NCBI GenBank assembly: GCA_029862165.1
Contig: JAOTXU010000009.1
Span: 65,497 to 129,496 of the forward strand
Length of the DNA stretch: 64,000 nucleotides
Direction of reading: 5' to 3'
Source of the DNA: Gammaproteobacteria bacterium
GTDB taxonomy: Bacteria; Pseudomonadota; Gammaproteobacteria; Steroidobacterales; JABDKV01
The translations under genes and the position numbers were made by a program. Position 1 is the stretch's first letter, and each line of letters begins with the position of its first letter. Positions 47,306 to 63,788 of the stretch are shown here, in pieces. Below the pieces are notes generated by a model that was given only the letters and a program-made list of their open reading frames with translations, was not told the origin of the DNA and searched no databases.

Positions 47306-47306
47306 G

Positions 47307-48524
47307 TCAGGCGGCCTGCGGGAACAATTCGCGTAAGGCGCCGGCAAGCCGTTCATAATGCGTTATACCGTTATAAAGCTGTGCCGAGATTCGAATCAGG
47401 CGTTTCGGGTGCGCCGGCCATGGGATCAGGGGGACCTCGATATTCCATCGTTGTAATAATTCCGCCTGTAGCGGGTCGCCATAAAGAGCCGAAGTCGAGG
47501 CCGGGCCGTCGCTGTCAGGCAACGGTAACGATGCCAGTGAGCCCAGCATCTCATCAGGGCAGGGCGCGTCGATTTCCAGCGCCGTACAAAGCAATCTGCG
47601 TCCTGCAATAACCGTCTGGTTGTTGTGTTTGCGAATGGCCGGCCAACCGCCTGGCAAGTATGACTCCAGTGTTTTCAATGCCACTGGCACACTGAGTACT
47701 GCAGTGGGATCCCAGGTGCCGGGCCAGTCAAATTCAACCAGATAGCGCGAGCGGTCGGTGCGCCGGCTATTGGCGCCATGACTAATGACTGGCGGGCGCA
47801 CGTTTTCCTGATGCTCCGGCTTCACGTGCAGAAAACCCGCGCCCTTCGGCGCACAGATCCATTTGTGACAGTTGGCGCTGTAGTAATCGGCGCCCAGCCC
47901 CGTGATATCGACATCAATCATGCCGGGTGCATGAGCGCCATCGACCAGCGTTTGCACACCGCGCTCACGCATCGCGGGAATCAGCGTTTCCAGTGGCATG
48001 ATTAGACCGGTTTGACTGGTGACGTGGTCAAGCAAGGCAATCCGTGTTTGATCGGTGACGCGGGACATGATGACGTCATGTATTTCGCTTAAACCGGTTG
48101 TTGGAAAGGGCACATTCACGGCCAACACTTTCGCTTTATCGCGCTGGGCAACAAATTCCAATACATTACGACATGCGTTGTATTCATGATTGGTAACCAG
48201 CAACTCGTCACCGGGCGAAAATTTCAGAGACTGGACGACAGCATTGACGCCGGTTGTAATGTTGGGCAACCATGCCAAATCCTTTGCTTCGCAATTGACA
48301 AAGGCAGCCAGTTCGGTGCGTGCGTCATCGAGCATCTGCTCCAGATCACGTACGTAGAAAGTAACGGGTTGGCGTTCGAGGCGATCGCGCAGCGATTGCT
48401 GGTATTGCAGTACCTCACGCGGGCAGCTGCCAAAAGAGCCATGGTTGAGAAAAACGACGTCCGGATCGAGCATCCAGTGGTTTGCAAGATTTTCTGTTGC
48501 GGAACTCACGCGCGCATTATCCAC
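47307..48524 (-). CDS. Class V aminotransferase-fold PLP-dependent enzyme (isopenicillin-N-epimerase / cysteine-desulfurase-like)
   Basis: 405 aa. FLNHGSFGSCP N-terminus, and SANCHKW containing the PLP-binding Lys. Confidence 0.8.
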   Translation of the reverse strand: MDNARVSSATENLANHWMLDPDVVFLNHGSFGSCPREVLQYQQSLRDRLERQPVTFYVRDLEQMLDDARTELAAFVNCEAKDLAWLPNITTGVNAVVQSLKFSPGDELLVTNHEYNACRNVLEFVAQRDKAKVLAVNVPFPTTGLSEIHDVIMSRVTDQTRIALLDHVTSQTGLIMPLETLIPAMRERGVQTLVDGAHAPGMIDVDITGLGADYYSANCHKWICAPKGAGFLHVKPEHQENVRPPVISHGANSRRTDRSRYLVEFDWPGTWDPTAVLSVPVALKTLESYLPGGWPAIRKHNNQTVIAGRRLLCTALEIDAPCPDEMLGSLASLPLPDSDGPASTSALYGDPLQAELLQRWNIEVPLIPWPAHPKRLIRISAQLYNGITHYERLAGALRELFPQAA

Positions 48525-48547
48525 TGCCGGCGCGTGTAATGGCAGTG

Positions 48548-49768
48548 TCAGCCGCCAAAGAGTGAGCGTACTTTGGCCGGTTTCAGGCCAAATTCTTCCA
48601 GCGTATATCGATGACGACCATGTTTGTCCTGCGGGTTGGCCGACAGAAACAGCCGCATGTTTTGCTCGGCCTCATCTGTCAGGCGCATCATGAGACCCGA
48701 ATAAAGTGTGCGAACCGCTTGAATCGGATCGGCAACCAGCGTCTCGTAGTCCAGATCCACCACGGCGTGACCTGTCCTGAATTGATTTGCGCGTTGCCAG
48801 CCCTCGGCCCACCATTTCACCCAGTAATCTGCGACCGCTGCGATGTCGACTACATCGCTGAATGCTGAACGCAGTATTACGCCATGACTCGCTATCGATG
48901 CCGCGACTTTCAGCGGGTCTCGTTGGGTAAAAACAAACCGTGCATCGGGATAGACCTTTGCCAATGCAGCTAATGTGTACAGATGTGCTGGTGCCTTGAG
49001 ACACCAGCGGCCAGCTTCGCCATGGATCTGCAGGTGCTGTAAAAACACTTTGTGATAATGCATTGCAGCGAGCCCATCCTGCTTGTCCAGCCACTTCTGG
49101 TAGGACGGAACATTAAACGTCGTGTGAAATTCGACACTGGCAAATTCATGTGCGGTTATCGCGATGCATTCCTGTGGCAACTCCGCACCGTTCGGGTGCA
49201 CCGTACGAAAACGTGGTGCTAACCGGTCTACCCATTTCAACATACTGTCGGTGCGCTCTATGCGACGCCGGTCATGGGCTCGTTTTTGGCCGGGCAGCGG
49301 ACACGGCAGCATGACTTCCCAGGTCCACGGCACCCGTATCGCCGGGTCTTGTGCCAACAGGCCGTGCAATAAGGTGCTGCCGGAGCGGGGCAGCCCACTG
49401 ATAATCACCGGTGCCGGGATAGTTTGTTGAGCTATGCGTACATCGCTTGAACGAGCGGCCTGTACCTGCAGCCGGTTAACCAACAGCTGGGTCAGGTGAG
49501 AACGCGCCGACATGCGTCCAACAAAATTTAGTTCTGCCTCATCTTCCAGCGATTCACATAGCCTGAAAAAACCATCACGCCAACTGTCCAGCCCGAAGTC
49601 CGACAGATTCGTTTTTTGTACCGCTTTCTTGGTAAGTCCATCCGGATTCAGCGATCCGCCAAGCCCGGGCAAGTGCCCTGCGAGGTTCGCCATACGCAGA
49701 TAAAACGGACGGTGCTGATATTTGTTGCGGGTCATGCTCGCGTTGGTTAGGGTTGCCAGCGGTCTCAT
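48548..49768 (-). CDS. Sulfotransferase family protein with ~190-aa N-terminal extension
   Basis: PAPS 5'-phosphosulfate-binding loop GLPRSGSTLLHGLL. The start is uncertain (ATG at 49768 or 49735; the longer ORF would overlap the hpnG start). Confidence 0.7.
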   Translation of the reverse strand: MRPLATLTNASMTRNKYQHRPFYLRMANLAGHLPGLGGSLNPDGLTKKAVQKTNLSDFGLDSWRDGFFRLCESLEDEAELNFVGRMSARSHLTQLLVNRLQVQAARSSDVRIAQQTIPAPVIISGLPRSGSTLLHGLLAQDPAIRVPWTWEVMLPCPLPGQKRAHDRRRIERTDSMLKWVDRLAPRFRTVHPNGAELPQECIAITAHEFASVEFHTTFNVPSYQKWLDKQDGLAAMHYHKVFLQHLQIHGEAGRWCLKAPAHLYTLAALAKVYPDARFVFTQRDPLKVAASIASHGVILRSAFSDVVDIAAVADYWVKWWAEGWQRANQFRTGHAVVDLDYETLVADPIQAVRTLYSGLMMRLTDEAEQNMRLFLSANPQDKHGRHRYTLEEFGLKPAKVRSLFGG

Positions 49769-49789
49769 GAGTTTAGCCCGGATACGCCG

Positions 49790-50524
49790 ATGACTCTCGA
49801 TAAACTGCGGAATAAGGCGTCCGAACGTGTAGGTGTAATTGCAGCGATGCCGGTCGAGGCCCGAGCGCTGGGTGCGAGCGAACCATTCAATCAAATCCTC
49901 GAACTCACAAGCAACACTTATGCGTACGTGTGCGGCGCCGGGCCGGATAACGCACGTCGTGCTATGCAAGAACTGCTCACTATGAATGTCGCCGGTGTCG
50001 TGAGCTGGGGTACAGCCGGTGGTTTGACACCGAACCTGGTACCCGGTACCGCGTTATTGAGCAAGAAGGTTATATGTGCCGATTCGGCCTATGAGACTGA
50101 TGGCTATTGGGCAGGACGTCTGCGGGATCACTTTAACTCGATTTTGACAATCAATGATGAGGCGATCTACTCGAGCGGCCAGCTTGTTTCCGGTATGGCC
50201 GAGAAAAAAAGATTGGCTAACGAGACCGGCGCGGTCGCCGTTGATATGGAGTCTGGTGCAATTGCAAAGACCGCCGTTGCAGCGGGTGTGCCTTTTGTTT
50301 GCGTGCGCGCAGTCGCCGATCCTTTTGACTTTAGCTTACCCGGCGCACTGAGCAGTGCGCTTGACGAAAAGGGTTTCCCGACAATCAACGGGGCACTGCA
50401 GGGCTTGCTCCGCCGGCCCGCCGATATTGTCCCGATGTTGCGGCTGGCAGTGTATTTCCGCAAGGCGACCAGGACACTGACCGTCATGTCCCGTGTTGCC
50501 GGTCCAGGTCTGCTCGGGCCTTGA
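49790..50524 (+). CDS. hpnG: Hopanoid-associated nucleoside phosphorylase/nucleosidase (HpnG-like)
   Basis: PNP/MTAN family pattern (GVIAAMPVEA..., DMESGAIA). It is the first gene of the hpn operon. Confidence 0.7.
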   Translation: MTLDKLRNKASERVGVIAAMPVEARALGASEPFNQILELTSNTYAYVCGAGPDNARRAMQELLTMNVAGVVSWGTAGGLTPNLVPGTALLSKKVICADSAYETDGYWAGRLRDHFNSILTINDEAIYSSGQLVSGMAEKKRLANETGAVAVDMESGAIAKTAVAAGVPFVCVRAVADPFDFSLPGALSSALDEKGFPTINGALQGLLRRPADIVPMLRLAVYFRKATRTLTVMSRVAGPGLLGP

Positions 50525-53064
50525 ATCACACGGCATATATCGACACGCCGGGGCGGTTGGTCCGTCGTTGGGTCGCGTTAGTCATTCGTTTTGCGCCAAT
50601 AATCGTGGTGCTGGCAGTTTTGTCGATTGCGCCGATGGCGTGGTTTGTTGCGACCCACTTAGGCATCAATACGAGCACGGCTGACATGATTGCCAAACGC
50701 CTGCCATGGCGACAAGCGTTTAGTGATTACCGTGCGGCGTTTCCACAACTAGATCACAACCTCGTTGCGGTGATCGATGCGCCGGACGCAGATCACGCTG
50801 ATGATGCCCGCGATGCGCTCTACATGGCGATGGCAGCGCGTGACGACTTATTCCATGAAGTGTTTGCACCCGGTAGCGACGTGTTTTTTCGTCAAAATGC
50901 ATTCTTATACTTGAGTTCCGAGCAGTTGGCGGACCTGGCTGACCGATTAGCCCAGGTTCAGCCCTTTCTTGCACAATTGGCTGACGACCCGACCACGGCC
51001 GGTTTGTTCAATGCCATTGCTCGCGGATTGGCTGCGGACGGCACCGACATTGATGTCTCGTTGCTGTTGACCAGAATTGCCGACGTCGTCGAAGCGCTCA
51101 ACAACGATAAAGAACACTCGCTTTCATGGCAGGCATTGATGAGCGACGAAGCACCATTACCCGCCCGCCGTGTCGTCGTTTTCCGTCCGAGGATGGATTT
51201 CGCAAGACTGCATCCGGCACAGGATGCTGTGGCAGCAATCCGTGAGCAGCAACAGATTATTTCCGCAGCGCTGCCATTAGACGCAAAGATTCGGCTTACC
51301 GGGCCGGTTGCGTTGGAGTACGAAGAATTGAGCAGTGTTTCGCGTGGCGCCCGGACGGCAGGCTTACTCGCACTGGTCATGGTGCTGGTGATTTTGTACT
51401 TCGCGATGCGTTCTGTATGGCTCGTATGTGCCACATTGTTGACACTCATCACTGGTTTGCTGGCCACAGCTGTTTTTGCAGCGCTCGCGATTGGTTCACT
51501 CAATCTCATCTCCATTGCGTTTACTGTCTTGTACATCGGCTTAGGCGTTGATTTTGCGATTCACTATAGTCTGCGTTTCCGGGAAGCACTGGCCGCAGGG
51601 GCCAGCACAGACGATGCGTTAATAGACAGCGCAGGTGATGTCGGAGCCTCGTTGGTGCTGTGTGCCGTCACGACATCAATCGGATTTTTTGCGTTTTTCC
51701 CGACGACTTTTCGTGGCGTGTCGGAGCTGGGAATTATTTCCGGCACGGGCATGTACATCAGTCTCATCGTGACCCTGACTTTGTTGCCTGCATTGCTCAA
51801 GGTGCTTCCCAAATCACAGAGTTTTGCATCGGCCGTCTCGCTAACGGGCCATATGCAACGCATTAGCCGCAGCCGTTTGCTTTTGCCGGCGGCTGCCGTA
51901 CTTAGCATTGCAGCGCTGGCAGCACTGCCGTACGCAGGCTTTGACAGCGATCCGATCAACCTGCGTGACGCTACCAGTGAATCGGTCGCCACCTATTACG
52001 ATTTGCTGGACGATCCACAATACTCACCGCGCTCATTATCAGTTATCGCTAACGACGCCAGTGATGTGACGCGCATACGTGCCGAGTTAAGCAATCTAGA
52101 CACCGTCAAATCCCTGTCCTCAATCGGCGATTTTGTGCCGACCGAGCAACCCGACAAGTTGGCGTTGATCGAAGAGATTGCATTAATAATGGGGCCGGAT
52201 TTATCGGTTACAGATACTTCTGTCGATACCGGCCGCGATCGTGCAGCGATTTCCAAGCTGTCGGATGTCCTGCAAAACGAGAAGTCGCAGCAAGCCGCTC
52301 GCCTGGCACGGGCGCTGGACGGTTTTCTGCCAAATGCTGCTACCGGGACCGACCCACGGTTAACGCTACTGAACCGAATGCTCGTCGGCACCTTGCCGGG
52401 GCGTTTGTCTGCGCTCAATGATGCATTGAGCGCCGACCGGGTTGCCCTCGAGGATTTGCCGACTGCCTTGCGTGACCGCTGGATTAGCGCGGATGGTCGC
52501 CGCCGTGTCGAGATACAGACCGATGTCGCAAAGACGGAGTTTGTCGATTCAGTACGTGCTGTGATACCTGCTGCGACGGGTCTGCCGGTTTTACAACGTG
52601 AGGGCGGCCGTGCCGTAGTGGGCGCGTTTCGGCAGGCATTCATCACCGCCTTCGTATTGATCTCGCTAATATTGCTTGTGTTGCTGCGCAATGCCCGCCA
52701 GGTTGTCGTCGTTCTGGTGCCATTGATCGCAGCGGGTCTGGGTACGGTCGCAGTCATGGTGTTAGTGGATCAGCCGTTCAATTTCGCCAACGTTATAGCT
52801 TTACCGTTGTTGCTCGGGGTTGGTGTGGACAATGGAATTCACATGGTGCATCGCTGGCGCAGTGGTGCTGTTGACCTGCTGGCCAGCAGTACCTCGCGTG
52901 CGATTTTTTTTAGTGCGCTGACTACCATTGCGAGTTTCGGTAATCTGGCGTTTTCCAGTCACCCGGGCAGCGCGAGTATGGGCAGGGTGCTCACTATCGG
53001 CATGATTCTGACAACGGCATTCAGCGTTTTGCTCATTCCTGCATTGCTGGATCGGCAACGATGA
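50521..53064 (+). CDS. hpnN: Hopanoid-associated RND/MMPL transporter (HpnN-like)
   Basis: 847 aa with two 6-TM bundles and two periplasmic loops (MMPL architecture). TTGA overlap with hpnG. Confidence 0.8.
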   Translation: MNHTAYIDTPGRLVRRWVALVIRFAPIIVVLAVLSIAPMAWFVATHLGINTSTADMIAKRLPWRQAFSDYRAAFPQLDHNLVAVIDAPDADHADDARDALYMAMAARDDLFHEVFAPGSDVFFRQNAFLYLSSEQLADLADRLAQVQPFLAQLADDPTTAGLFNAIARGLAADGTDIDVSLLLTRIADVVEALNNDKEHSLSWQALMSDEAPLPARRVVVFRPRMDFARLHPAQDAVAAIREQQQIISAALPLDAKIRLTGPVALEYEELSSVSRGARTAGLLALVMVLVILYFAMRSVWLVCATLLTLITGLLATAVFAALAIGSLNLISIAFTVLYIGLGVDFAIHYSLRFREALAAGASTDDALIDSAGDVGASLVLCAVTTSIGFFAFFPTTFRGVSELGIISGTGMYISLIVTLTLLPALLKVLPKSQSFASAVSLTGHMQRISRSRLLLPAAAVLSIAALAALPYAGFDSDPINLRDATSESVATYYDLLDDPQYSPRSLSVIANDASDVTRIRAELSNLDTVKSLSSIGDFVPTEQPDKLALIEEIALIMGPDLSVTDTSVDTGRDRAAISKLSDVLQNEKSQQAARLARALDGFLPNAATGTDPRLTLLNRMLVGTLPGRLSALNDALSADRVALEDLPTALRDRWISADGRRRVEIQTDVAKTEFVDSVRAVIPAATGLPVLQREGGRAVVGAFRQAFITAFVLISLILLVLLRNARQVVVVLVPLIAAGLGTVAVMVLVDQPFNFANVIALPLLLGVGVDNGIHMVHRWRSGAVDLLASSTSRAIFFSALTTIASFGNLAFSSHPGSASMGRVLTIGMILTTAFSVLLIPALLDRQR

Positions 53065-54047
53065 GAGCGCTGGTTACCGGCGCGACAGGTTTTATCGGTT
53101 CTGCGGTGGCGCGTGCCCTGATAAATGCCGGCCACCAGGTTCGCGTCTTGGCACGCCCGTCCAGCGATCACGCGAATCTTGCCGGAATAGACGTGGAAAT
53201 CGTTCAGGGCGACCTAATCGATGCCGGCTCGATGTTGCACGCGGTCGTCGGGATGGACATCGTGTTTCATGTCGCAGCCGATTACCGACTTTGGGTGCCC
53301 GACCCGGATGTGCTTTATCAGATCAACGTACATGGCACGCGCTCTTTGCTCGAAGCTGCACAACTTGCTGATGTAAAACGCGTCGTGTACACCAGTAGTG
53401 TTGCGACACTTGGAATCAATGACGATGGCACGTCATCAGACGAAACAACAGCGGTGTCAGTGGCCGACATGATCGGTCACTACAAACGCTCCAAATTTCT
53501 GGCGGAGGAACTTGCGTTTGAGGCTGCGGCCGGTGGACAGGACGTTGTAGTCGTCAATCCCTCTGCGCCGGTCGGGCCAAGGGACATCAAGCCCACACCG
53601 ACAGGGAAAATGATCGTCGATGCCGCCGCGGGTCGAATGCCGGCCTATGTCGATAGTGGATTGAACATCGTACATGTCGATGATGTGGCACAGGGCCATC
53701 TGTTGGCTGCAATGAGTGGTCGTTCCGGCCGCCACTACGTGCTCGGGTGTGAGAACATGACTTTGGCAGAGATTTTCTCCACGGTGGCAGCAATGACCGG
53801 CGTTCGTGCACCAAAAATCAAGTTACCGGTATCTTTGCTATTGCCGGTTGCTCACGTCGCCGAAGCTGTGGCAGGCATAACCCACAAAGCGCCGATGGTG
53901 ACGGTAGATGGCGTAAAGCTCGCCCGCAAGCACATGTATTTTTCCAGTCAACGCGCAATCGATGAATTGGGTTACCAGCCCAGACCAGCTATGGAGGCGT
54001 TAAGAGACGCAGTGGACTGGTTTTCGGAAAACGGATACTTGCAGTGA
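53061..54047 (+). CDS. hpnA: Hopanoid-associated NAD-dependent sugar epimerase (HpnA-like)
   Basis: MRALVTGATGFIGSAVARAL..GH.VRVL.RP.SD..NL.G.DVEIV.GDL and FHVAADYRLW, which is the HpnA-type SDR pattern. ATGA overlap with hpnN. Confidence 0.8.
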   Translation: MRALVTGATGFIGSAVARALINAGHQVRVLARPSSDHANLAGIDVEIVQGDLIDAGSMLHAVVGMDIVFHVAADYRLWVPDPDVLYQINVHGTRSLLEAAQLADVKRVVYTSSVATLGINDDGTSSDETTAVSVADMIGHYKRSKFLAEELAFEAAAGGQDVVVVNPSAPVGPRDIKPTPTGKMIVDAAAGRMPAYVDSGLNIVHVDDVAQGHLLAAMSGRSGRHYVLGCENMTLAEIFSTVAAMTGVRAPKIKLPVSLLLPVAHVAEAVAGITHKAPMVTVDGVKLARKHMYFSSQRAIDELGYQPRPAMEALRDAVDWFSENGYLQ

Positions 54048-55021
54048 AACAAGCGACAGCACTCGCGCATCCCAATATTGCTCTGGTGAAATACTGGGGC
54101 AAACGTGACACTGCATTGAATCTACCCGCGGTGGGTTCGATCTCTATCACGCTCGACACTTTGCATACCAAAACGAAAGTGCGTTTTGATGAAACCCTGG
54201 ACAGTGATGTTTTTTTGCTCGACGGCGCAAGCAACGCCGGTGAGACACGCCGCGTGGTCGATTGTCTGAGCCTGTTGCGCGAGATCGCGGGCGTACAAAC
54301 GCATGCCGAAGTGCGCAGCGAAAACAGTTTTCCTACAGGTTCCGGTCTGGCATCTTCGGCATCGGGCTTTGCTGCCCTGGTTGTGGCTGCCGACGCGGCC
54401 CTGGATCTCGGGCTGGATCAAAGCCGGTTGTCAGAACTGGCACGTCGTGGTTCCGGTTCAGCGGCACGTTCCGTACTCGGTGGTTTTGTCGAGTTGCATC
54501 ATGGCGAGTGGGAAGACGGTGCTGATTGCATCGCTACATCTTTGTTGGATGCTGCTGAGTGGCCACTGGCGGTCACCGTTGGTGTGATATCGCGCAAGGC
54601 AAAAAAAGTCGGCTCGACAGCAGGTATGGAACTGACGCGCGAAACGTCATCCTATTATTCGGCATGGGTGGATGGTGCCGAAGCTGATCTGTTGGCAGCA
54701 AGAGTTGCGATTGTTGAACGCGACTTTCAGAAACTGGCTGACGTAAGTGAGCTGAGTTGCTTGAAGATGCATGCGCTGGCGATGTCGTCACAACCGGGGT
54801 TGATGTACTGGCATGGCGCCACGGTGGAGGGCATCCACCGCATTCGACAGTTGCGTCGTGGCGGACATGCGGTGTTTTTCACCATCGACGCCGGTCCGCA
54901 ACTCAAAGTGATTTCAACGCCAGAGGCCGTGGCAACAGTGACCGACGCCTTAAGCGATATTTCGGGCGTGCAGGACGTTTTGCTTACCGGTTTGGGCGAG
55001 GGAGCACGAGTCGTTGACTAG
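54044..55021 (+). CDS. mvaD: Diphosphomevalonate decarboxylase
   Basis: NIALVKYWGKRD, SFPTGSGLASSASGFAAL and ARRGSGSAARS motifs. GTGA overlap with hpnA. Confidence 0.9.
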   Translation: MKQATALAHPNIALVKYWGKRDTALNLPAVGSISITLDTLHTKTKVRFDETLDSDVFLLDGASNAGETRRVVDCLSLLREIAGVQTHAEVRSENSFPTGSGLASSASGFAALVVAADAALDLGLDQSRLSELARRGSGSAARSVLGGFVELHHGEWEDGADCIATSLLDAAEWPLAVTVGVISRKAKKVGSTAGMELTRETSSYYSAWVDGAEADLLAARVAIVERDFQKLADVSELSCLKMHALAMSSQPGLMYWHGATVEGIHRIRQLRRGGHAVFFTIDAGPQLKVISTPEAVATVTDALSDISGVQDVLLTGLGEGARVVD

Positions 55022-55979
55022 CACGGCAACAGCACCCGGGAAGCTAATCCTGATTGGCGAGTTTGCCGTCTTAGAAGGCGCGCCCGCCATCGTGATGGCA
55101 ATCGACAGGCGGGCACAGGTGCGCGTTACATCGGCGCAAACAAACCTGGTGACGGCGCCAGAGATATGTGAGCGGGAAGTAAGCTTTAGTGTTGACGCGG
55201 ATCGCCGCGTTAGCTGGCTCGGCGTTGATCCTTCCCAGAGCGTTCGACTGGAAATACTGGCGCAGGTAATTGCGAGATATTGGTCCGGCACACCTGTGCA
55301 CATTGAAACCGATACCGCGGCATTTTTTGAAGACGGTATCAAAATGGGTTTTGGCTCCAGCGCGGCGCTGACAGTCGCGGCGTCCGCTGCACTGCGTCGC
55401 AAAGTTCCGGATTTGGCAGAGCTGATCGAAACACACAAGGTCGCGCAGGGCGGGCGTGGTAGCGGATTCGATATCGCGGCGAGTTTGAACGGTGGTGTCA
55501 TTAACTTCAGGTCACAACCGCCCGAGGCAACTCCGCTGAGTTTGCCGGATGGTTTGCATATGCGCTGTGTCTGGACTGGCCATGCCGCATCGACGTCGGC
55601 GTTTCTCCGTGGGCTGGATGCACTCGGCGAGCGACGCAACGCGATTGACGAGCTGGCCGGTAGCGCAAGATCCGCCGTTAGCGGCCTCGACAACAGTCCT
55701 GCGTCCTGGGTGCAGGCTGTACAGAATTATTCGAAGGCTTTGAAACGATTCGCGGCACAGACATCACTGCCGATTTTTTCCGGTGGCCACACCGAGATTG
55801 CGGAGGTCGCAAATGCTAACAATGTGGCTTATAAGCCCAGCGGTGCCGGGGGCGGAGATCTGGGTATTGCAGTCAGCATGGATGCCGCACCTCTGGAGTC
55901 GTTTAGCCGAGCGCTGAGCGCGACCGGCGTGCGGATCGTGCGACTGGTTGTGGACAAAAAGGGCCTAATCTTGAGTTAG
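55014..55979 (+). CDS. Phosphomevalonate kinase (GHMP family)
   Basis: TTG start overlapping the mvaD stop by 8 nt. APGKLILIGEFAVLEG, GFGSSAALTVA, GSGFDIAAS and KPSGAGGGDLGIA motifs. Confidence 0.8.
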   Translation: MTSTATAPGKLILIGEFAVLEGAPAIVMAIDRRAQVRVTSAQTNLVTAPEICEREVSFSVDADRRVSWLGVDPSQSVRLEILAQVIARYWSGTPVHIETDTAAFFEDGIKMGFGSSAALTVAASAALRRKVPDLAELIETHKVAQGGRGSGFDIAASLNGGVINFRSQPPEATPLSLPDGLHMRCVWTGHAASTSAFLRGLDALGERRNAIDELAGSARSAVSGLDNSPASWVQAVQNYSKALKRFAAQTSLPIFSGGHTEIAEVANANNVAYKPSGAGGGDLGIAVSMDAAPLESFSRALSATGVRIVRLVVDKKGLILS

Positions 55980-56012
55980 TTGAGGCCCAGGACTTTAAGC
56001 TATTATTGGCCG

Positions 56013-57134
56013 ATGTACGACGCTCAGACAGCCCGGCAAGACACCCCCGATACCACCCCGGTTGCCGTTGCCGCCGGTCCGCCGTCGCCCGAAGATATCG
56101 CTTTGCAAGATGAGCTGCTGCCCGGCGTTTCCAGAACTTTTGCATTGACCATCCCGCAGTTGCCGGAACCGTTGCGCGTGCCGGTGACCAATGCATATCT
56201 GTTATGCCGCATTGCCGACACTATCGAAGATGAACCAACTCTAACTCCGGCCGAGAAACGACAATTTCACAAGCAGTTTGTCGCCGCTGTACAGGGCAAG
56301 ACTTCGGCGACAGAATTTGCCAAATCACTGCACCCGCGTCTGTCTAAGACTACGCTTGCAGCGGAACGCGAACTCATATTGCATTCGCAGCAGGTGTTGC
56401 ACACGACGCGCGCATTACCGGCACGACAACGCGATTCGCTGGAACGTTGTATTTCGATCATGTGTGACGGCATGTCGCAGTTTCAGAATACGGAAGGACT
56501 CAGTGGTCTGGAAGACCTGCATGAGATGGAACGCTATTGTTATTTTGTTGCCGGTGTCGTGGGCGAAATGCTTACTGAATTGTTTTGTGATTATTCACCG
56601 GATATTGAGGCAACCCGCCCCGAGTTAATGAATCTCTCGGTTGCGTTTGGTCAGGGTCTGCAAATGACCAACATCCTCAAGGATATATGGGAGGACCGGA
56701 CTCGCGATGCGTGCTGGTTACCTCGCGATGTGTTTGAAGAGGTAGGTTGCGATCTCGGCAGCCTGGACCCAGAGTCGCGCAAGGGGTTTGGTGAAGCCCT
56801 CAATCAACTCATCGGAGTGGCGCATTTGCGATTGCGTAGCGCGCTTTCCTATACGCAGTTGATTCCCTCTGCCGAGACCGGGATACGCCGTTTTTGTTTG
56901 TGGGCTATAGGCATGGCCGTACTTACATTGCGCAAGATTCACCAGAACCCGGATTTTGTCGCCGGTGGCGAGGTCAAAATCTCCCGTCGCGCGGTTAAGT
57001 CAACTATCCTGGCTGCCAACCTCACAGCGCCCAGTAACGCAGCACTAAAAATGGCTTTCGATCTGGTCGCCCGCGGTCTACCGTTGGCCGACGGGGAGCA
57101 GTATCAGGCGATGAGCAACAGCCCCAACGGCTAG
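56013..57134 (+). CDS. sqs: Squalene synthase (farnesyl-diphosphate farnesyltransferase), single-enzyme Sqs type
   Basis: SRTFALTI, CRIADTIEDE (DTxED motif), YCYFVAGVVGEML and LQMTNILKDIWED. The start is ATG at 56013, or TTG at 55980 abutting the upstream stop. Confidence 0.8.
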   Translation: MYDAQTARQDTPDTTPVAVAAGPPSPEDIALQDELLPGVSRTFALTIPQLPEPLRVPVTNAYLLCRIADTIEDEPTLTPAEKRQFHKQFVAAVQGKTSATEFAKSLHPRLSKTTLAAERELILHSQQVLHTTRALPARQRDSLERCISIMCDGMSQFQNTEGLSGLEDLHEMERYCYFVAGVVGEMLTELFCDYSPDIEATRPELMNLSVAFGQGLQMTNILKDIWEDRTRDACWLPRDVFEEVGCDLGSLDPESRKGFGEALNQLIGVAHLRLRSALSYTQLIPSAETGIRRFCLWAIGMAVLTLRKIHQNPDFVAGGEVKISRRAVKSTILAANLTAPSNAALKMAFDLVARGLPLADGEQYQAMSNSPNG

Positions 57135-57225
57135 AAAGCAATATTGCCGGGATGCATCACAGGATCGGAATCGTCATAATAGCCAGCCGCCCGGCCGGCT
57201 AGTCCCCAAACTCAGGTACAGCGTA

Positions 57226-59478
57226 ATGCACACATCACGCATCCCACGGTTCTACAAAATGTCAGTCGCTGAACGCGTTCGTGCCGCACGCGATTTGGGT
57301 GTCCTCAATCGCGAGGACTATCGCGCGTTGACCAGTGGCGATCACATGCTAACCGTCAACCGCGCCGACAAGATGATCGAAAACGTCATCGGTGTGATGG
57401 GATTGCCGGTGGGTTTGGGTCTCAATTTTGTTATTAATGAAAACGAGTACGTAATACCGCTGGTAGTGGAAGAACCCTCAATCGTTGCCGCGCTGAGTTC
57501 TGCTGCCAAGCTCATCAGAAAATCGGGCGGCTTTGGTGTCGAAAGCACCGATTCGGTGCTCATCGGGCAGATTCAGGTGGTCGATTTGCGGCACACGACG
57601 CGTGCACGACAGGCCTTATTGGATAACAAACAAGAAATAATCAATCTGGCAAACAGCCTGCACCCGAACATGGTGGCGCGTGGCGGCGGCGCCAAAGACA
57701 TGGAAGTGTTAATACATGCCGGCGCCAGTGAACAAGTCGGTGATATGTTGGTCGCGCACCTGTTGGTGGACACACGCGATGCAATGGGTGCGAATCTTGT
57801 CAACACAATGTGCGAGGGCGTAGCGCCATTGGTTGAAAAAATCACCGGCGGAAAGGTTTTTTTGCGCATATTGTCGAATCTGGCCGACCGATCGCTCGTA
57901 CGCGCTCACTGCAGCATTCCGGTCGATAACCTCGGTGGCAAAGGCTACGACGGCGAAGAAGTGCGTGACGGAATTGTACTGGCCAGCGAATTTGCTGCGG
58001 CTGACCCTTACCGGGCGGCGACACATAACAAAGGCGTTATGAATGGTATCGATGCCGTCGCCCTGGCGACCGGCAACGATTGGCGTGCTATTGAGGCCGG
58101 TGCGCATGCTTATGCAGCTCGTGGTACGCATTACACGTCGCTGAGCCGTTGGACACGTGGCCCGGATGGCGCGTTGATCGGTGATCTCGAAATGCCGCTC
58201 AAGGTTGGAACAGTCGGTGGCCCCCTGGAGTCCAATCCGACTGTGGCGATGAATATGCGTATGCTGGACGTAAAAAGCTCACGCGAGCTGGGTGAGGTCA
58301 TGGGTGCTGTTGGGCTGGCACAGAATTTCTCTGCACTACGTGCACTGGCGACTGAGGGCATACAAACGGGCCACATGACACTGCACGCCCGTAGTGTTGT
58401 GACGGCGGCCGAAGCGCCACCGGAAGTATTCGATACCGTGGTCGAGCGATTGATCGAAAGTGGAACGATCAAGATCTGGAAAGCACGGGAGTTGGTAACC
58501 GAAGTCGTTGAACAAAGCTCGCCGGGAGGCACATCGGGTCTGAAGCCGTTAGACGCAGAAGGCGCGAAGGCCGGCAACGGAAAGATTATTCTGTTGGGCG
58601 AACACTCCGTTGTTTATGGTCGTCATGCCATCGCCGCACCAGTAGAACTGGCGGTACAGGCGCGTGTGCATGATTGCGAAACGGGTGTCCATCTGGTCGT
58701 GCCGCGCTGGGGCGTGGAATACCGGATGCATGAGCAAGCCGCCAAACGCCGTTCGTTTGAAATTTCTGCGGGTTTGATACTGGAGAAACTGGGATTGACC
58801 GGGCGGGCCATGCGTATCGAGGTCTATCCAAACGTCCCGCGCGCAATGGGTCTGGGTGGCTCCGCAGCGACCGCCGTGGCGATAATCCGGGCGTTGGATG
58901 ATCACTTCGAACTGGGGCTGGACGAAAATGAAATCAACCAGCTGGCTTACGAGAGTGAAAAGGTAGCTCACGGTAACCCGTCCGGTATTGATAACACGGT
59001 GGCGACCTTTGGCAAGACATTGTTGTTCAAGCGCGGCGATCCACCGCTGATGCATGAGCTGCGCTTTCCACAAAAGATACCTGTCGTCATCGCCATGAGC
59101 GGCGTCGAGAGTCTCACAGCCAAGATGGTCGCGCGTGTGCGTGCCGCATGGGAGAAAAACAAAACCTTGTACGAGCGCATCTTCGATGAGATCGATGCGC
59201 TAGCGTTACATGCGGTTGAAGCGCTGAAGGAAAACAATATCGGCCAGCTGGGCGAGTTGATGAATATCAATCAGGGTCTGCTAAATGCCCTACAGGTCTC
59301 CTGTTGGGAAGTGGAGGAACTAATTCAAATCGCCCGTGAGAACGGCGCATCGGGTGCGAAGCTGACCGGTGGCGGTGGCGGCGGTTCCATCATCGCGATT
59401 TGCCCGGAAGATCCGCAACGCGTGGTCAAAGCTATCCGCGATGCCGGTTACCAGGCCATGGAGGTCGAGATTGGCTGA
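57226..59478 (+). CDS. Bifunctional fusion: class II HMG-CoA reductase (N-terminal ~430 aa) :: mevalonate kinase (C-terminal ~310 aa)
   Basis: N-terminal part has ENVIG..LP.G, PLVVEEPSIVAA and DAMGANLVNT. A Ser/Gly/Pro linker ...EQSSPGGTSGLKPLDAEGAKA follows. The C-terminal part has GKIILLGEHSVVYG, GLGGSAATAVA and KLTGGGGGGSIIA. It is one uninterrupted 750-codon frame. Confidence 0.85.
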   Translation: MHTSRIPRFYKMSVAERVRAARDLGVLNREDYRALTSGDHMLTVNRADKMIENVIGVMGLPVGLGLNFVINENEYVIPLVVEEPSIVAALSSAAKLIRKSGGFGVESTDSVLIGQIQVVDLRHTTRARQALLDNKQEIINLANSLHPNMVARGGGAKDMEVLIHAGASEQVGDMLVAHLLVDTRDAMGANLVNTMCEGVAPLVEKITGGKVFLRILSNLADRSLVRAHCSIPVDNLGGKGYDGEEVRDGIVLASEFAAADPYRAATHNKGVMNGIDAVALATGNDWRAIEAGAHAYAARGTHYTSLSRWTRGPDGALIGDLEMPLKVGTVGGPLESNPTVAMNMRMLDVKSSRELGEVMGAVGLAQNFSALRALATEGIQTGHMTLHARSVVTAAEAPPEVFDTVVERLIESGTIKIWKARELVTEVVEQSSPGGTSGLKPLDAEGAKAGNGKIILLGEHSVVYGRHAIAAPVELAVQARVHDCETGVHLVVPRWGVEYRMHEQAAKRRSFEISAGLILEKLGLTGRAMRIEVYPNVPRAMGLGGSAATAVAIIRALDDHFELGLDENEINQLAYESEKVAHGNPSGIDNTVATFGKTLLFKRGDPPLMHELRFPQKIPVVIAMSGVESLTAKMVARVRAAWEKNKTLYERIFDEIDALALHAVEALKENNIGQLGELMNINQGLLNALQVSCWEVEELIQIARENGASGAKLTGGGGGGSIIAICPEDPQRVVKAIRDAGYQAMEVEIG

Positions 59479-59500
59479 TCACGGTGGACTGCGTTCTGCT

Positions 59501-60058
59501 GTGGTGTCCAGTGAGAGTGAGCGGCTGGTACTGGTCGACGGGCAGGATCAGGAAATAGGCTTCGAATCCAAAGGAACTGTGCATGACGGCACAGGCCTTT
59601 TGCATCGCGCCTTTTCGCTTTTCATTTTCAATAAACAAGGCGAATTGCTAATGCAGCAACGCAGCGCCGCCAAGCGCCTATGGCCGATGTTTTGGTCCAA
59701 CAGTTGCTGCAGCCATCCACGCGAAGGCGAGGACATCGATGATGCAACCCATCGCAGACTGCGCGAAGAACTGGGCATGCGAAGCGACTTGCAGTTTTTG
59801 TACCGCTTTCGTTATCACGCGCAGTTTGGTGAGCTCGGTGCCGAACACGAGTTTTGCTGGGTCTACATTGGTCGTAGTGACGACATGATTCGGGTCAATC
59901 GCAACGAAATTGCCGCCTGGCGCTGGATCGCCATTGAAGATCTGGAGCGTGAGATGGGCGAACAGCCGCACGGTTTTACGCCATGGTTTAGAATGGAGTG
60001 GGAACGTATCCGCGGTGAATTCGCCGCTGAACTGGCAACATTAGCGGGCAATATATGA
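59501..60058 (+). CDS. idi: Isopentenyl-diphosphate delta-isomerase, type 1 (Nudix)
   Basis: LHRAFSLFIFN..GELLMQQRS..K..WP..WSNSCCSHP..GE. There is no in-frame ATG after the upstream stop, so the start is GTG at 59501 or TTG at 59471. Confidence 0.85.
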   Translation: MVSSESERLVLVDGQDQEIGFESKGTVHDGTGLLHRAFSLFIFNKQGELLMQQRSAAKRLWPMFWSNSCCSHPREGEDIDDATHRRLREELGMRSDLQFLYRFRYHAQFGELGAEHEFCWVYIGRSDDMIRVNRNEIAAWRWIAIEDLEREMGEQPHGFTPWFRMEWERIRGEFAAELATLAGNI

Positions 60059-61179
60059 GCATACCTCTCAAACAACAATACACGGTAGGCAGCTACATCC
60101 TGCGTCAGAAATTGAAGAGGCGTGAGCGTTATCCATTGGTATTGATGCTCGAACCCTTATTCCAATGCAATCTGGCCTGCGCCGGTTGCGGCAAGATCGA
60201 TTACGAAAAAGATATCCTGGCACAACGCGTGTCGGTACATGATGCATTGCGTGCGGTGGACGACTGCGGGGCACCGATAGTCTCGATCGCCGGTGGCGAA
60301 CCATTAATCCACAAAGAGTTACCGCAGATCGTCGCAGGCATAATTGAGCGCAAGAAGTATGTTTATCTTTGCACCAACGCTATTCTGTTGCGTAAACGCA
60401 TGGATGACTATCAGCCGTCACCCTATCTGACTTTCTCGATACATCTCGATGGCAACCGCAAACGTCATGACGAGTCGGTTTGCCAGGTCGGCGTCTTCGA
60501 CAAAGCGGTGCTGGCTATCGAGCAGGCCAAAGAGCGCGGTTTCCGTGTCACAGTGAACTGCACGTTGTTTAACAGCGAGGATCCACAGGACGTAGCCGAG
60601 TTTTTTGACCACGCCATGGGAATGGGTGTTGAGGGTGTGACGGTTTCGCCCGGTTACAGTTATCAGCATGCACCACGCCAGGATGTCTTCCTGCAACGCA
60701 AGCAGAGCAAAGAACTGTTTCGCGAAATTTTCCGGCGTGGCAAGGAAGGTAAACGAGACTGGCGTATCAACCAGTCCAGCCTGTTCCTCGATTTTCTTGC
60801 AGGCAACCAGACATATCATTGCACGCCGTGGAGTAATCCCACCTACAACGTATTTGGCTGGCAGAAACCGTGTTATTTGCTAGTCGATGAGGGTTACGTC
60901 GACAGTTATGCGGGGCTGATGGAAAATACACCATGGGATGAGTACGGCACCGGTAACAATCCGAAGTGCGATAACTGCATGGCGCACTGTGGTTATGAGG
61001 GAACGGCCGTTAACGACACGTTTGCGAATCCACTGAAGGCGCTGAAAGTTGCGCTACGCGGACCACGCACCGACGGACCGATGGCACCGGAAGTGCCGAT
61101 TACCTACACTTCGCGGCCAGTACCTGCAGTCGGCATCCCGGTCGATCAAATCGGTCGCAGCAACGGCGCCTCCCAGTAA
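60055..61179 (+). CDS. hpnH: Hopanoid biosynthesis radical SAM protein HpnH (adenosylhopane synthase)
   Basis: YPLVLMLEPLFQCNLACAGCGKIDY radical-SAM cluster motif with an HpnH-type N-terminus. ATGA overlap with idi. Confidence 0.9.
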   Translation: MSIPLKQQYTVGSYILRQKLKRRERYPLVLMLEPLFQCNLACAGCGKIDYEKDILAQRVSVHDALRAVDDCGAPIVSIAGGEPLIHKELPQIVAGIIERKKYVYLCTNAILLRKRMDDYQPSPYLTFSIHLDGNRKRHDESVCQVGVFDKAVLAIEQAKERGFRVTVNCTLFNSEDPQDVAEFFDHAMGMGVEGVTVSPGYSYQHAPRQDVFLQRKQSKELFREIFRRGKEGKRDWRINQSSLFLDFLAGNQTYHCTPWSNPTYNVFGWQKPCYLLVDEGYVDSYAGLMENTPWDEYGTGNNPKCDNCMAHCGYEGTAVNDTFANPLKALKVALRGPRTDGPMAPEVPITYTSRPVPAVGIPVDQIGRSNGASQ

Positions 61180-61197
61180 GCGGCTCCCTGCCGCGAT

Positions 61198-61292
61198 CGC
61201 TTCCCCACCCTAGCCAATAGCTCGGCCTTTGGCCTCACGACAGTGTCGCTACGCGACTTACTGTCTGTGTGTCTCAACACACGCAAATCGCC
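61198..61292 (-). repeat. Dispersed ~95-nt intergenic repeat, copy 2 (inverted relative to copy 1)
   Basis: Its reverse complement aligns with 9427..9520. It is flanked at 61291-61311 by CCAAAAAAAGGGGGGAGGGAA, the same C/G-rich motif as the 27.9-28.1 kb hairpin family. Confidence 0.7.
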
Positions 61293-61340
61293 AAAAAAAG
61301 GGGGGAGGGAATAAATTATCGAAATGGGCTTTAATAGTCC

Positions 61341-63788
61341 GTGGGTTGGGGGCCTGTACCGGTGTGGCGACACGGCGGCATCAAAGGGAAAAACATTAGC
61401 GGCGTCACGGCGCCAGCGAGGCATCTTTTGCTATCGATTCGAGACTTGTTTCTGACGGCGATCATGGTCTTTTTGGCTTGTGATACTGCCTTGGCTGTCG
61501 CGGTCGGGGTGGTTATCGACGGGCCGACCGCCAGACAAGGCACAACTCTGGATCTGGTCAAACAAGAGGTGGCGAGTCTGCTCGGCGACGAGTTCGATGT
61601 CAGCTTTCCGCAAGAAAAACTGCGGCACGGCGACTGGACACCTGACGGGGTGCGCACAGCCTTGGCCGAAACGTTGCGGGACCCACAAGTCGACGTAATC
61701 ATCACATTGGGATTGCTCGCGTCGAGTGAGGTGGCCCGCATCGAACGGCTGGCCAAACCGGTCATAGCGGCAGTGGTTCCCGATGCTGAACTCCAGGGGT
61801 TCCCGTTTCGCAATGGTGTTAGTGGACGCAGAAACTTTGTCTACATTTCAAGCTTCAAGGGCATCGATGAAGAGCTCAGTACTTTTCACAGGACCGTCGG
61901 CTTTAGTCATCTCACAATCATCGCCGACGAAACGTCGATGGGCGCGGTCCCGGAATTTCGGACGAAGTCGGCACAGCTGGCGAGGGATCTGGGTTTCGCG
62001 ATAGATATCGTCGCCGTCAAAGATTCTGTCGACAACATACTCTCTGTCTTGCCGGCCGAGACCGATGCGGTCTATGTCACGCCGTTGTGGCGATTACCTG
62101 CCGATGGAATCGAGCGACTCGCGGCGGGTCTGGTCAAACGTGGTCTACCCAGTTTGTCACTACTGGGCCGCAGCGAAGTCGAGGCCGGTTTATTAATGAC
62201 GATTGGCGGTTTGCCATCAGACGACACTCGTTTTGCTCGCCGTATCGGTCTGAACCTGCAACGAATACTATTGGGCGAGGATGCTGGAGAGATCGAAGTC
62301 GGGTTCCGTCTCGGTCGTCGGCTTGTTATCAACATGCGCACCGCACGCGCGATCGGTTTTCTACCACGGTGGGCGGTGCTGATCGATGCCGAGAAAATCA
62401 ACGACGAACAGCCCGCAGACGCCCGGAAACTGGGTCTGTATGACGCGATGATCGAATCGATAAAAACCAATCTGTTGCTGCAGGCATCGGAGTTCGACAT
62501 CAGAATCGCCGAAGATGACGTGCAGACAGCGCGGTCGACTCTATTACCGCAACTCGATGTTTCAGCGACACGCAGCCAGATTGATTCCGACAGAGCGAAC
62601 CCACTGGTGCAGGCAGAAAAGAGTCTGGATGCCGGCGTCGGTGGCAGCCAGATCATTTATTCCGAACAGGCTCGCGCCTCGCTGGCTATCGCGCGGCGTC
62701 TCGCGGATGCTGCCGGCGAAGGGTACCAGTCGACAATACTGGATACTTTGCAAGGGACTGCGACTGCCTATCTCTCATTGCTCCGTGCACAGGCTCTTGA
62801 AGCCGTACGCAGGTCCAACCTGGAAGTAACACGCACAAACCTGGAACTCGCACGTGTGCGAGAGTCTGTCGGTGCTTCCGGACGGGCAGACGTATTGCGT
62901 TGGGAGAGCCAGATTGCACGCGATCGCCAGGACGTGCTGTCGGCGCAGGCGACACGCTTCCGTGCTCTGACGGAGCTTAACCGCGTGATGAACCGGCCCC
63001 AGGCTGAACCAGTGACAACCGTGCGAGACGGTCTGGACGAAACACTCGCGGTGCTGAATGACCCGCGTTTCGACAGCTTCATAGGTAACCCGGTTGTCTG
63101 GGAAACGTTCATAGATTTCTCTGTAGCCGAAGCGATGTCTCTGTCACCAGAGCTGCGTCAGTTTGAATCCAACGTACAGGCACAACAACGCGACGTACTG
63201 GCAGCTCGCAGGGCGTGGTATGTGCCCGACATCGCATTGTCTGCCGATGCGGGCAACAACATCGATCGAAGTGGCGCAGGATCGGACCGAACCGGTTTGA
63301 TGCTAGATGACGAAAGTTGGACTATAGGCGTGAGCGCCTCGTTACCGCTATTCAGTGGCGGCGCACTCAAGTCCCGACTTTCGCGATCGCGACATACCCT
63401 TTCCCAGCTCGAGCGCCAATACGCTGCCTTGTCTGAAAATATCGAAGCCCGTATGCGCGCGGCGTTGCACCAGGTTGGCGGCTCGTTCCCCGCGATAGAA
63501 CTCTCGCAGGATGCGGCGCGAGCAGCAGCAGCCAACCTCGATCTGGTAATCGATGCTTATTCCAAAGGCGCTGTGTCGGTTACCGATCTGATCGATGCAC
63601 AAGACGCCGCACTGTCGGCCAAGCTTGCAGCGGCAGAGGCAGAATATGCCTTTCTGATCGATTATATGGAGATTTTGCGGGCACGGGGCAATTTCGACCT
63701 GGTACTGGATCCACCAAGTAGCCAGGCCTGGTATGAAAGCGTCGAAGCCTATTTCAGCGAACACGGCGTCTCGCCACTGAGACGATAG
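61341..63788 (+). CDS. TolC-family outer membrane efflux protein with N-terminal periplasmic-binding-protein-like (ABC_sub_bind-like) extension
   Basis: The C-terminal ~440 aa show the OEP/TolC repeat pattern (LLPQLDVSATRS..., LFSGGALKSRL..., AEAEYAFLIDYMEILRA). The N-terminal ~370 aa resemble type-I PBP / ABC substrate-binding proteins. The start is uncertain (61341 or 61464). Confidence 0.65.
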   Translation: MGWGPVPVWRHGGIKGKNISGVTAPARHLLLSIRDLFLTAIMVFLACDTALAVAVGVVIDGPTARQGTTLDLVKQEVASLLGDEFDVSFPQEKLRHGDWTPDGVRTALAETLRDPQVDVIITLGLLASSEVARIERLAKPVIAAVVPDAELQGFPFRNGVSGRRNFVYISSFKGIDEELSTFHRTVGFSHLTIIADETSMGAVPEFRTKSAQLARDLGFAIDIVAVKDSVDNILSVLPAETDAVYVTPLWRLPADGIERLAAGLVKRGLPSLSLLGRSEVEAGLLMTIGGLPSDDTRFARRIGLNLQRILLGEDAGEIEVGFRLGRRLVINMRTARAIGFLPRWAVLIDAEKINDEQPADARKLGLYDAMIESIKTNLLLQASEFDIRIAEDDVQTARSTLLPQLDVSATRSQIDSDRANPLVQAEKSLDAGVGGSQIIYSEQARASLAIARRLADAAGEGYQSTILDTLQGTATAYLSLLRAQALEAVRRSNLEVTRTNLELARVRESVGASGRADVLRWESQIARDRQDVLSAQATRFRALTELNRVMNRPQAEPVTTVRDGLDETLAVLNDPRFDSFIGNPVVWETFIDFSVAEAMSLSPELRQFESNVQAQQRDVLAARRAWYVPDIALSADAGNNIDRSGAGSDRTGLMLDDESWTIGVSASLPLFSGGALKSRLSRSRHTLSQLERQYAALSENIEARMRAALHQVGGSFPAIELSQDAARAAAANLDLVIDAYSKGAVSVTDLIDAQDAALSAKLAAAEAEYAFLIDYMEILRARGNFDLVLDPPSSQAWYESVEAYFSEHGVSPLRR

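Follow-up and report, generated by a model that had tools for sequence, protein, structure and literature searches.

Does a single bacterial gene encode two consecutive enzymes of the mevalonate pathway, and if so, is the fusion genuine and what would it do? The question is raised by a 64,000-nucleotide stretch of the genome of a Gammaproteobacteria bacterium (Steroidobacterales, JABDKV01; contig JAOTXU010000009.1 of assembly GCA_029862165.1, positions 65,497 to 129,496), hereafter the window, for which a preliminary description made from the sequence alone had proposed that a class II 3-hydroxy-3-methylglutaryl-coenzyme A (HMG-CoA) reductase (HMGR) and a GHMP-family mevalonate kinase (MVK) are joined on one polypeptide. 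We found a single open frame from ATG to TGA at 57226..59478 on the forward strand, 750 codons plus stop, on which the list of open reading frames (ORFs) and the translation agree, and which we refer to as the hmgr::mvk fusion gene. From the base composition of the window, the chance of 750 codons without a stop is approximately 1e-13. The six motifs on which the two identities had been based were all located in the product: ENVIG (residues 52–56), PLVVEEPSIVAA (78–89) and DAMGANLVNT (185–194) in the reductase half, and GKIILLGEHSVVYG (452–465), GLGGSAATAVA (542–552) and KLTGGGGGGS (712–721) in the kinase half.

Pfam, NCBIfam and alignments to solved structures all placed both enzymes on this one polypeptide, as had been proposed. 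Pfam assigned HMG-CoA_red to residues 15–388 (PF00368, E 8e-108, 361 bits against a cutoff of 27), GHMP_kinases_N to residues 517–595 and GHMP_kinases_C to residues 663–742 (PF00288 and PF08544, each exceeding its cutoff). The best NCBIfam model was TIGR00532 (HMG-CoA reductase, degradative; 419 bits, cutoff 260, residues 1–388), and TIGR00549 (mevalonate kinase; 247 bits, cutoff 163) covered residues 452–724. Residues 4–424 matched the Pseudomonas mevalonii HMGR structure 1qax end to end, including the C-terminal flap (E 1e-118), and the reductase domain likewise aligned with 9v7y, while residues 437–750 aligned with solved mevalonate kinases, the top match being the Leishmania major enzyme (2hfs). 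None of the solved structures compared has one chain spanning both the reductase and the kinase halves. Pfam and NCBIfam detected no thiolase domain in the product, whose HMGR begins at residue 1.

Such a frame could in principle be an artefact in which neighbouring hmgr and mvk genes were merged by a sequencing frameshift, a lost stop or gene calling, particularly given that separate adjacent hmgr–mvk pairs in different frames occur in some lineages, where a single indel could fake a fusion. However, the identical 750-amino-acid product was present on contigs of independent assemblies (ENA ERZ27296365, JGI 3300022202 and Logan SRR7132272), and the same sequence was also found in NCBI. At 90% identity, at least 120 clusters had the architecture, as did at least 51 species representatives, among them fusion-bearing contigs of megabase size, and the linker between the domains changes in length by whole codons only. 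Moreover, Wenzhouxiangella AB-CW3, whose genome was closed by combining nanopore and Illumina data, has a 757-amino-acid coding sequence whose homology to the fusion was taken from its length and neighbours. Because the open frame recurs in independent assemblies and the in-frame architecture is widely conserved, we reject an artefact, to which we assign practically no probability.

The fusion is real, and many environmental bacteria carry it. In a collection of 5.8 billion proteins, the best 120 clusters at 90% identity were examined; these were approximately 745–767 amino acids long (one had 1131), carried the same three Pfam domains and shared 66–100% identity with the fusion, and their names included Wenzhouxiangella, Litchfieldella qijiaojingensis, Nevskia, Rhodanobacteraceae, Oleiagrimonas and Arenicellales. 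A library clustered at 50% identity held approximately 20–25 full-length representatives with the fusion architecture, the lowest identity being 36%. GTDB species representatives were also scanned, and open frames were then checked in the DNA of the best 80 loci, of which at least 51 had the HMGR and kinase motifs in one open frame. These carriers were mostly Gammaproteobacteria (Nevskia, Rhodanobacteraceae, Salinisphaera, Woeseiaceae, metagenome-assembled genomes (MAGs) of Pseudomonadales, and Endozoicomonas sp. G2_2), and the labels of other carriers included Calditrichota (Calditrichaceae/Caldithrix), Balneolaceae, Acidobacteriota, Actinomycetota, Nakamurella and Cryobacterium psychrotolerans.

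The preliminary description had allowed that the architecture might turn out to be common and already characterised. Common it is, being abundant in databases, but we found no account of its characterisation. Full-text literature searches, whose coverage leaves out most subscription journals, returned no description of a natural HMGR::MVK fusion, and a 2026 review and a 2026 HMGR study agree with the preliminary description, to which no characterised fusion of this type was known. The only mevalonate-pathway fusion mentioned in the review is MvaE, and Hoshino & Gaucher (2018) mention fused partner sequences only to state that these were trimmed prior to phylogeny. The fusion is thus real, common in databases, uncharacterised as far as literature searches show, and systematically misnamed: NCBI PGAP uses the family name "hydroxymethylglutaryl-CoA reductase, degradative" and JGI the name "hydroxymethylglutaryl-CoA reductase", leaving the kinase half unnamed in both cases.

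Are both halves likely to be active? In an alignment of 135 fusion homologues reaching down to about 36% identity, on which all conservation counts below are based, the reductase catalytic residues E83, K269, N273, D285 and H383, aligned with 1qax (Glu83, Lys267, Asn271, Asp283 and His381 in P. mevalonii numbering), were kept in 134–135 of the sequences, as were K453, E459, S546, E578, D589 and T714 of the kinase. The latter include the motif I Lys (GKxILxGEH), the motif II Ser (GLGSSAA-like) and the Glu/Asp pair (E...PSGxD), and motif III (KxTGxGGGG) is present as well. Judging from this alignment, both halves are under selection. One half could nonetheless be a non-catalytic pseudo-enzyme with a regulatory or scaffolding role, its activity being supplied by a separate gene, and a second GHMP kinase does lie two genes upstream; this gene scores below every curated cutoff, so its role as phosphomevalonate kinase (PMK) is presumed. 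Against this, all residues known to act in catalysis or nucleotide binding show little or no variation among the homologues in either domain, both domains exceed curated equivalog cutoffs, and the pathway requires exactly three GHMP-fold steps, matching the three such domains in the operon, where Pfam and NCBIfam found no second mevalonate kinase. A pseudo-enzyme half is therefore very improbable.

The segment between the two domains was the least conserved part of the protein, with a mean top-residue frequency of 0.34 compared to 0.5–0.9 elsewhere, and ranged from 12 to 70 amino acids (median 26) without ever breaking the frame. In a monomeric AlphaFold2 model built on a 50-sequence alignment, the mean predicted local distance difference test (pLDDT) score was 88; both domains were mostly above 90, the flap, with helices modelled at residues 379–431, scored 69–84, and residues 431–444 (nt 58516–58557) fell below 50, with a predicted template modelling (pTM) score of 0.58 overall. 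The linker that the preliminary description had placed at about nt 58500–58570 fits this segment, the low-conservation block at residues 426–450 and the DNA itself. The model thus predicts two well-folded domains on a disordered tether with no defined mutual orientation, and offers no indication of a fixed channel. As for a separate kinase translated from an internal start, 15 of the 135 aligned linkers were viewed and none had a Met; the linker is poorly conserved overall.

Where the linker sits is of interest, given that it starts right behind the last helix of the reductase flap and ends about 8 residues before the kinase strand that bears the active-site Lys453, Lys453 itself being no more than about 10 residues from the linker's end. 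We take the His383-bearing flap to be the mobile element that closes over the active site, as established for P. mevalonii HMGR, and both parent enzymes, HMGR and mevalonate kinase, are obligate dimers. A true metabolon can therefore be envisaged, in which a defined inter-domain interface or a higher-order assembly channels mevalonate or couples kinase feedback to flap closure: the kinase follows immediately on the mobile flap, the HMGR-then-MVK order is kept in 61 of the 66 members of one clade, and triple fusions with isopentenyl-diphosphate isomerase (IDI) or PMK exist. However, the linker is poorly conserved and of very variable length, the AlphaFold model lacks confident domain packing, a protein of reverse order, MVK-HMGR (P0143), speaks against a geometry-specific interface, and mevalonate is a small, stable and soluble intermediate, and we consider a metabolon unlikely. 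A sealed mevalonate tunnel is likewise unlikely because the linker is variable, pTM is low and the reverse order exists.

Equally doubtful, in our view, is a more specific form of this idea, in which dimeric parents and a flap-hung kinase would generate a closed tetramer or an open polymer, in which mevalonate would pass between the sites without mixing with the cytosolic pool, or in which feedback inhibitors would gate flap closure. If it were true, kinase-bound inhibitors gating the flap would amount to built-in allosteric control of the committed step of the pathway, and the C-terminus of class II HMGR would serve isoprenoid "assembly-line" enzymes in general as a place to dock, which would fit the many other C-terminal partners described below.

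In which direction, and with which cofactor, would the reductase half work? According to the rule of Miller & Kung, as quoted in PMC13488460, a cofactor helix of the type Dx(V/L)xxxL indicates NADH and one of the type (H/Y)xSxxxR indicates NADPH, and in the Ruegeria HMGR the equivalent aspartate was shown by experiment to be the NADH determinant (PMC12292504). D146-Q-L-L-N-S-L152 of P. mevalonii aligned with H146-P-N-M-V-A-R152 of the fusion, which lacks the NADH motif D-x-(V/L)-x-x-x-L. It matches the NADPH rule at positions 1 (H), 4 (M, where the NADPH type has L, I or M) and 7 (R), that is, at three of the four diagnostic positions, with N instead of S at position 3. Across the family, H was found in 123 and R in 131 of the 135 homologues, with K, N, Q or R at position 3 and M or L at position 4. 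These residues suggest that the cofactor is probably NADPH, or that the enzyme has dual specificity. Consequently, the label "Pseudomonas-mevalonii-type" given in the preliminary description holds for the class II fold, but not for the cofactor helix. The PGAP name "degradative" goes back to TIGR00532, a model constructed around the catabolic enzyme of P. mevalonii, and given the NADPH-like helix H-x-N-M-x-x-R, this automatic name is probably wrong.

It remains to be weighed whether the fusion is a catabolic enzyme whose reductase half oxidises mevalonate to HMG-CoA with NAD+, as P. mevalonii does when growing on mevalonate. TIGR00532 is indeed the best NCBIfam model, no solved structure is markedly closer to the sequence than P. 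mevalonii HMGR, and class II enzymes are reversible. However, a kinase and a mevalonate-oxidising half would compete for a single substrate, His stands in place of the NADH determinant Asp146 and Arg in place of Leu152, and the operon partners are a decarboxylase, a PMK-like kinase, IDI, squalene synthase and hpn genes, with no HMG-CoA lyase seen among the operon genes. In addition, the genus table of the 2026 review scores Wenzhouxiangella and Woeseia as mevalonate-pathway-only, and fusion homologues are labelled Wenzhouxiangella and Woeseiaceae. We therefore regard a catabolic role as highly unlikely. In the cultured Wenzhouxiangella AB-CW3, the 757-amino-acid "HMG-CoA reductase" (abcw3|01229) lies between genes for a decarboxylase, a GHMP kinase and IDI, and its product had non-zero proteome abundance in all three growth conditions (3/3).

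The genomic context of the fusion gene points in the biosynthetic direction as well (Table 1). From 49790 to 61179, one same-strand run reads hpnG-hpnN-hpnA-mvaD-pmk-sqs-hmgr::mvk-idi-hpnH, with stop/start overlap at most junctions and a 91-nt gap separating the squalene synthase gene from the fusion gene. The IDI gene begins within the fusion gene, its ATG being located 38 nt from the 3' end (59441–59478) and in another frame; this overlap suggests translational coupling. For the presumed PMK, Pfam gives only a weak GHMP_N match. Among 52 fusion loci, a decarboxylase was found in 42, a PMK-like kinase in 42 and IDI in 41, while HMG-CoA synthase occurred within 8 kb in 15; squalene synthase or hpn genes were associated with about 10–12, mainly those of the closest relatives. 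The mevalonate module in this lineage thus appears to be wired to squalene and hopanoid production. Squalene-hopene cyclase was not found in the scanned ORFs, including all those above 600 amino acids, or in the 10 kb downstream of the window, and may be encoded elsewhere in the genome. A promoter and terminator scan of 49000–62000 gave nothing exceeding shuffled expectation. GC content is uniform (54–58%) over the whole window, which therefore shows no sign of a recently acquired island.

Table 1. Positions of the fusion gene elements and of the surrounding operon genes in the window.
Feature	Position	Strand	Evidence or remark
Class II HMG-CoA reductase domain	57226..58497	+	residues 1-424; includes three-helix C-terminal flap bearing catalytic His383
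Cofactor helix motif H146-P-N-M-V-A-R152	57661..57681	+	aligned with D146-Q-L-L-N-S-L152 of P. mevalonii
Inter-domain linker TEVVEQSSPGGTSGLKPLDAEGAKAG	58498..58575	+	residues about 425-450; DNA read through without stop
GHMP mevalonate kinase domain	58576..59475	+	residues 451-750
hpnG	49790-50524	+	HpnG 192 bits vs cutoff 187
hpnN	50521-53064	+	HpnN 892 bits vs cutoff 752
hpnA	53061-54047	+	HpnA 494 bits vs cutoff 368
Diphosphomevalonate decarboxylase	54044..55021	+	TIGR01240 288 bits vs cutoff 171
Divergent GHMP kinase, presumed phosphomevalonate kinase	55014..55979	+	best TIGR01220 91.5 bits, under cutoff 165.7
Squalene synthase-like enzyme (SQS_PSY)	55980..57134	+	Pfam/NCBIfam; start called at 56013 by gene callers
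Type 1 isopentenyl-diphosphate isomerase (IDI)	59441..60058	+	NF002995 171 bits vs cutoff 127
hpnH, adenosyl-hopene transferase (radical SAM)	60055..61179	+	TIGR03470 537 bits vs cutoff 225

Several neighbours of this run were also recorded. Directly upstream of hpnG, three divergent genes on the reverse strand (46280–49969) encode a GNAT-like Acetyltransf_6 protein, a class-V aminotransferase/cysteine-desulfurase-like protein and a sulfotransferase (Sulfotransfer_3), whose products might modify a lipid or hopanoid head group. On the other side, a forward-strand gene (61341–63788) encodes a TolC-like outer-membrane factor with an extra N-terminal region of approximately 360 residues that has no Pfam match; on a longer contig (L001, 14239–20738), the TolC-like gene is followed by genes for a membrane-fusion protein, an RND pump and MlaC, which looks like an envelope or lipid-transport module adjoining the hopanoid genes. 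Further away, a 388-amino-acid ORF on the forward strand (26109–27275) combines the N-terminal part of a fatty-acid desaturase (residues 16–215) with a fragment of an ISL3-family DDE transposase (297–385) and may reflect an insertion sequence that entered, or landed beside, a desaturase gene.

Taken as a bifunctional enzyme of mevalonate biosynthesis, with independently folding domains on a disordered tether instead of a sealed substrate tunnel, which we consider very likely, the fusion could work as follows. The N-terminal class II HMGR would convert HMG-CoA to mevalonate, most likely with NADPH, and the C-terminal kinase would phosphorylate mevalonate to mevalonate 5-phosphate with ATP. The adjoining PMK-like enzyme, decarboxylase and isomerase would complete the route to isopentenyl diphosphate (IPP) and dimethylallyl diphosphate (DMAPP), which in this organism would supply the squalene synthase and the hopanoid genes of the operon. 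The two catalytic domains would fold independently, with a disordered tether of approximately 14–26 residues behind the mobile C-terminal flap. The gain may consist of obligatory 1:1 co-expression of the two activities and of co-localised active sites, the kinase being kept near the point of mevalonate release, while ATP-driven removal of mevalonate would pull the reversible class II reductase step forward and make it effectively irreversible. What the data show directly is the open frame, the identity of its domains, the conserved catalytic residues, the recurrence of the architecture in many lineages and the setting in the operon; from these we infer both activities, a preference for NADPH, operation in the biosynthetic direction and a kinetic benefit. 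As regards the channelling of mevalonate expected in the preliminary description, proximity and a fixed 1:1 stoichiometry are defensible, a tunnel is not.

Several observations weigh against this interpretation. No enzymatic assay of any family member was found in the literature. The Ser at position 3 of the NADPH rule is replaced by Asn, Lys, Gln or Arg, so that dual specificity is possible. The AB-CW3 protein was taken as a fusion from its length, neighbours and genus only, and its proteomics demonstrate expression and say nothing on whether the protein stays uncleaved. A monomer AlphaFold model is blind to interfaces formed only in an oligomer. Finally, HMG-CoA synthase, which would supply the HMG-CoA, was found neither in the 64-kb window nor in the following 10 kb.

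Among known systems, the closest described analogue is MvaE of Enterococcus faecalis, which, like the fusion, is a natural bifunctional mevalonate-pathway protein with a class II HMGR, in a host that relies on the mevalonate pathway; MvaE-like thiolase-HMGR proteins were also among our database matches (P0218). In MvaE, however, the partner is an acetoacetyl-CoA thiolase at the N-terminus and the non-adjacent steps 1 and 3 are joined, whereas here the kinase sits at the C-terminus behind the flap and performs the very next step. HMGR of P. mevalonii (MvaA; 1qax and others) shares the class II fold and the identical catalytic Glu, Lys, Asn, Asp and His, but is a stand-alone, NAD+-dependent and catabolic enzyme with the helix D146-x-L-x-x-x-L152 in place of H146-x-N-M-x-x-R152. 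Stand-alone mevalonate kinases (L. major 2hfs, Methanosarcina mazei 4hac/6mde, Staphylococcus aureus 2x7i and Streptococcus pneumoniae 2oi2) have the full fold, motifs I–III and the catalytic Asp and Lys in common with the kinase half, which, unlike them, has no free N-terminus, its first beta-strand following the HMGR linker. In the bacterial synthesis of isoprenoid precursors, IspDF of the methylerythritol phosphate (MEP) pathway is likewise a naturally occurring and widespread bifunctional fusion, but belongs to another pathway, has other folds and joins non-consecutive steps.

How did the fusion arise? In a neighbour-joining tree of 173 HMGR domains, built with domain-based tags and without bootstrap support, 61 of the 66 HMGR-MVK fusions fell into one clade of 66 leaves and the other five elsewhere; the five non-fusion leaves of the main clade were three truncated fusions and two short proteins. 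This suggests, although the tree is only indicative, one main origin followed by wide spread, possibly with a few independent events. In Virgibacillus, Oceanobacillus, Paucisalibacillus, Corallococcus and Myxococcus (L051, L058–L061, L063 and L074), hmgr and mvk lie side by side in the order of the fusion, and their open frames overlap or abut but differ in reading frame, giving two polypeptides. It is plausible that such pairs in Bacillota and Myxococcota represent the pre-fusion state, which a small indel would fuse.

Class II HMGR is often fused to other enzymes too, judging from apparent architectures as deposited (P0010, P0122, P0124, P0143, P0153, P0160, P0162, P0163, P0165, P0166, P0169, P0171, P0174, P0176, P0180 and P0205). 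Apparent variants include HMGR-MVK-IDI1 (928–952 amino acids), PMK-HMGR-MVK (1131 amino acids), reverse-order MVK-HMGR, PMK-like-HMGR, IDI2-HMGR, HMGR-polyprenyl synthase, HMGR-polyprenyl synthase-squalene synthase (1162–1453 amino acids), HMGR-epimerase, HMGR-SQS-epimerase, HMGR-terpene synthase and HMGR-cyclase-like proteins. IDI is fused in frame to give a three-enzyme protein in P0122, from a Desulfobacterales MAG, and in P0124.

Our results leave current understanding in place: neighbours in a pathway are often fused, each of the two domains has a predictable function, and a specialist would not be surprised. The practical consequences lie in annotation and engineering. The name "HMG-CoA reductase, degradative" hides the mevalonate kinase of the pathway and suggests the wrong physiological direction, and where pathway completeness is surveyed by searching for a separate kinase gene, carriers could wrongly be scored as lacking the mevalonate kinase step. 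In engineered isoprenoid production, moreover, no two steps are tuned more than those of HMGR and mevalonate kinase, and a natural 1:1 fused module, probably of the NADPH type, could be taken ready-made from cultivable bacteria, with Wenzhouxiangella, Litchfieldella qijiaojingensis, Endozoicomonas sp. G2_2 and Cryobacterium psychrotolerans as candidate sources. Finally, the fusion is one member of a larger set, as yet undescribed, in which class II HMGRs are joined to downstream isoprenoid enzymes, and with this family nature offers a test of whether a kinetic benefit arises when consecutive enzymes with a small soluble intermediate in common are tethered.

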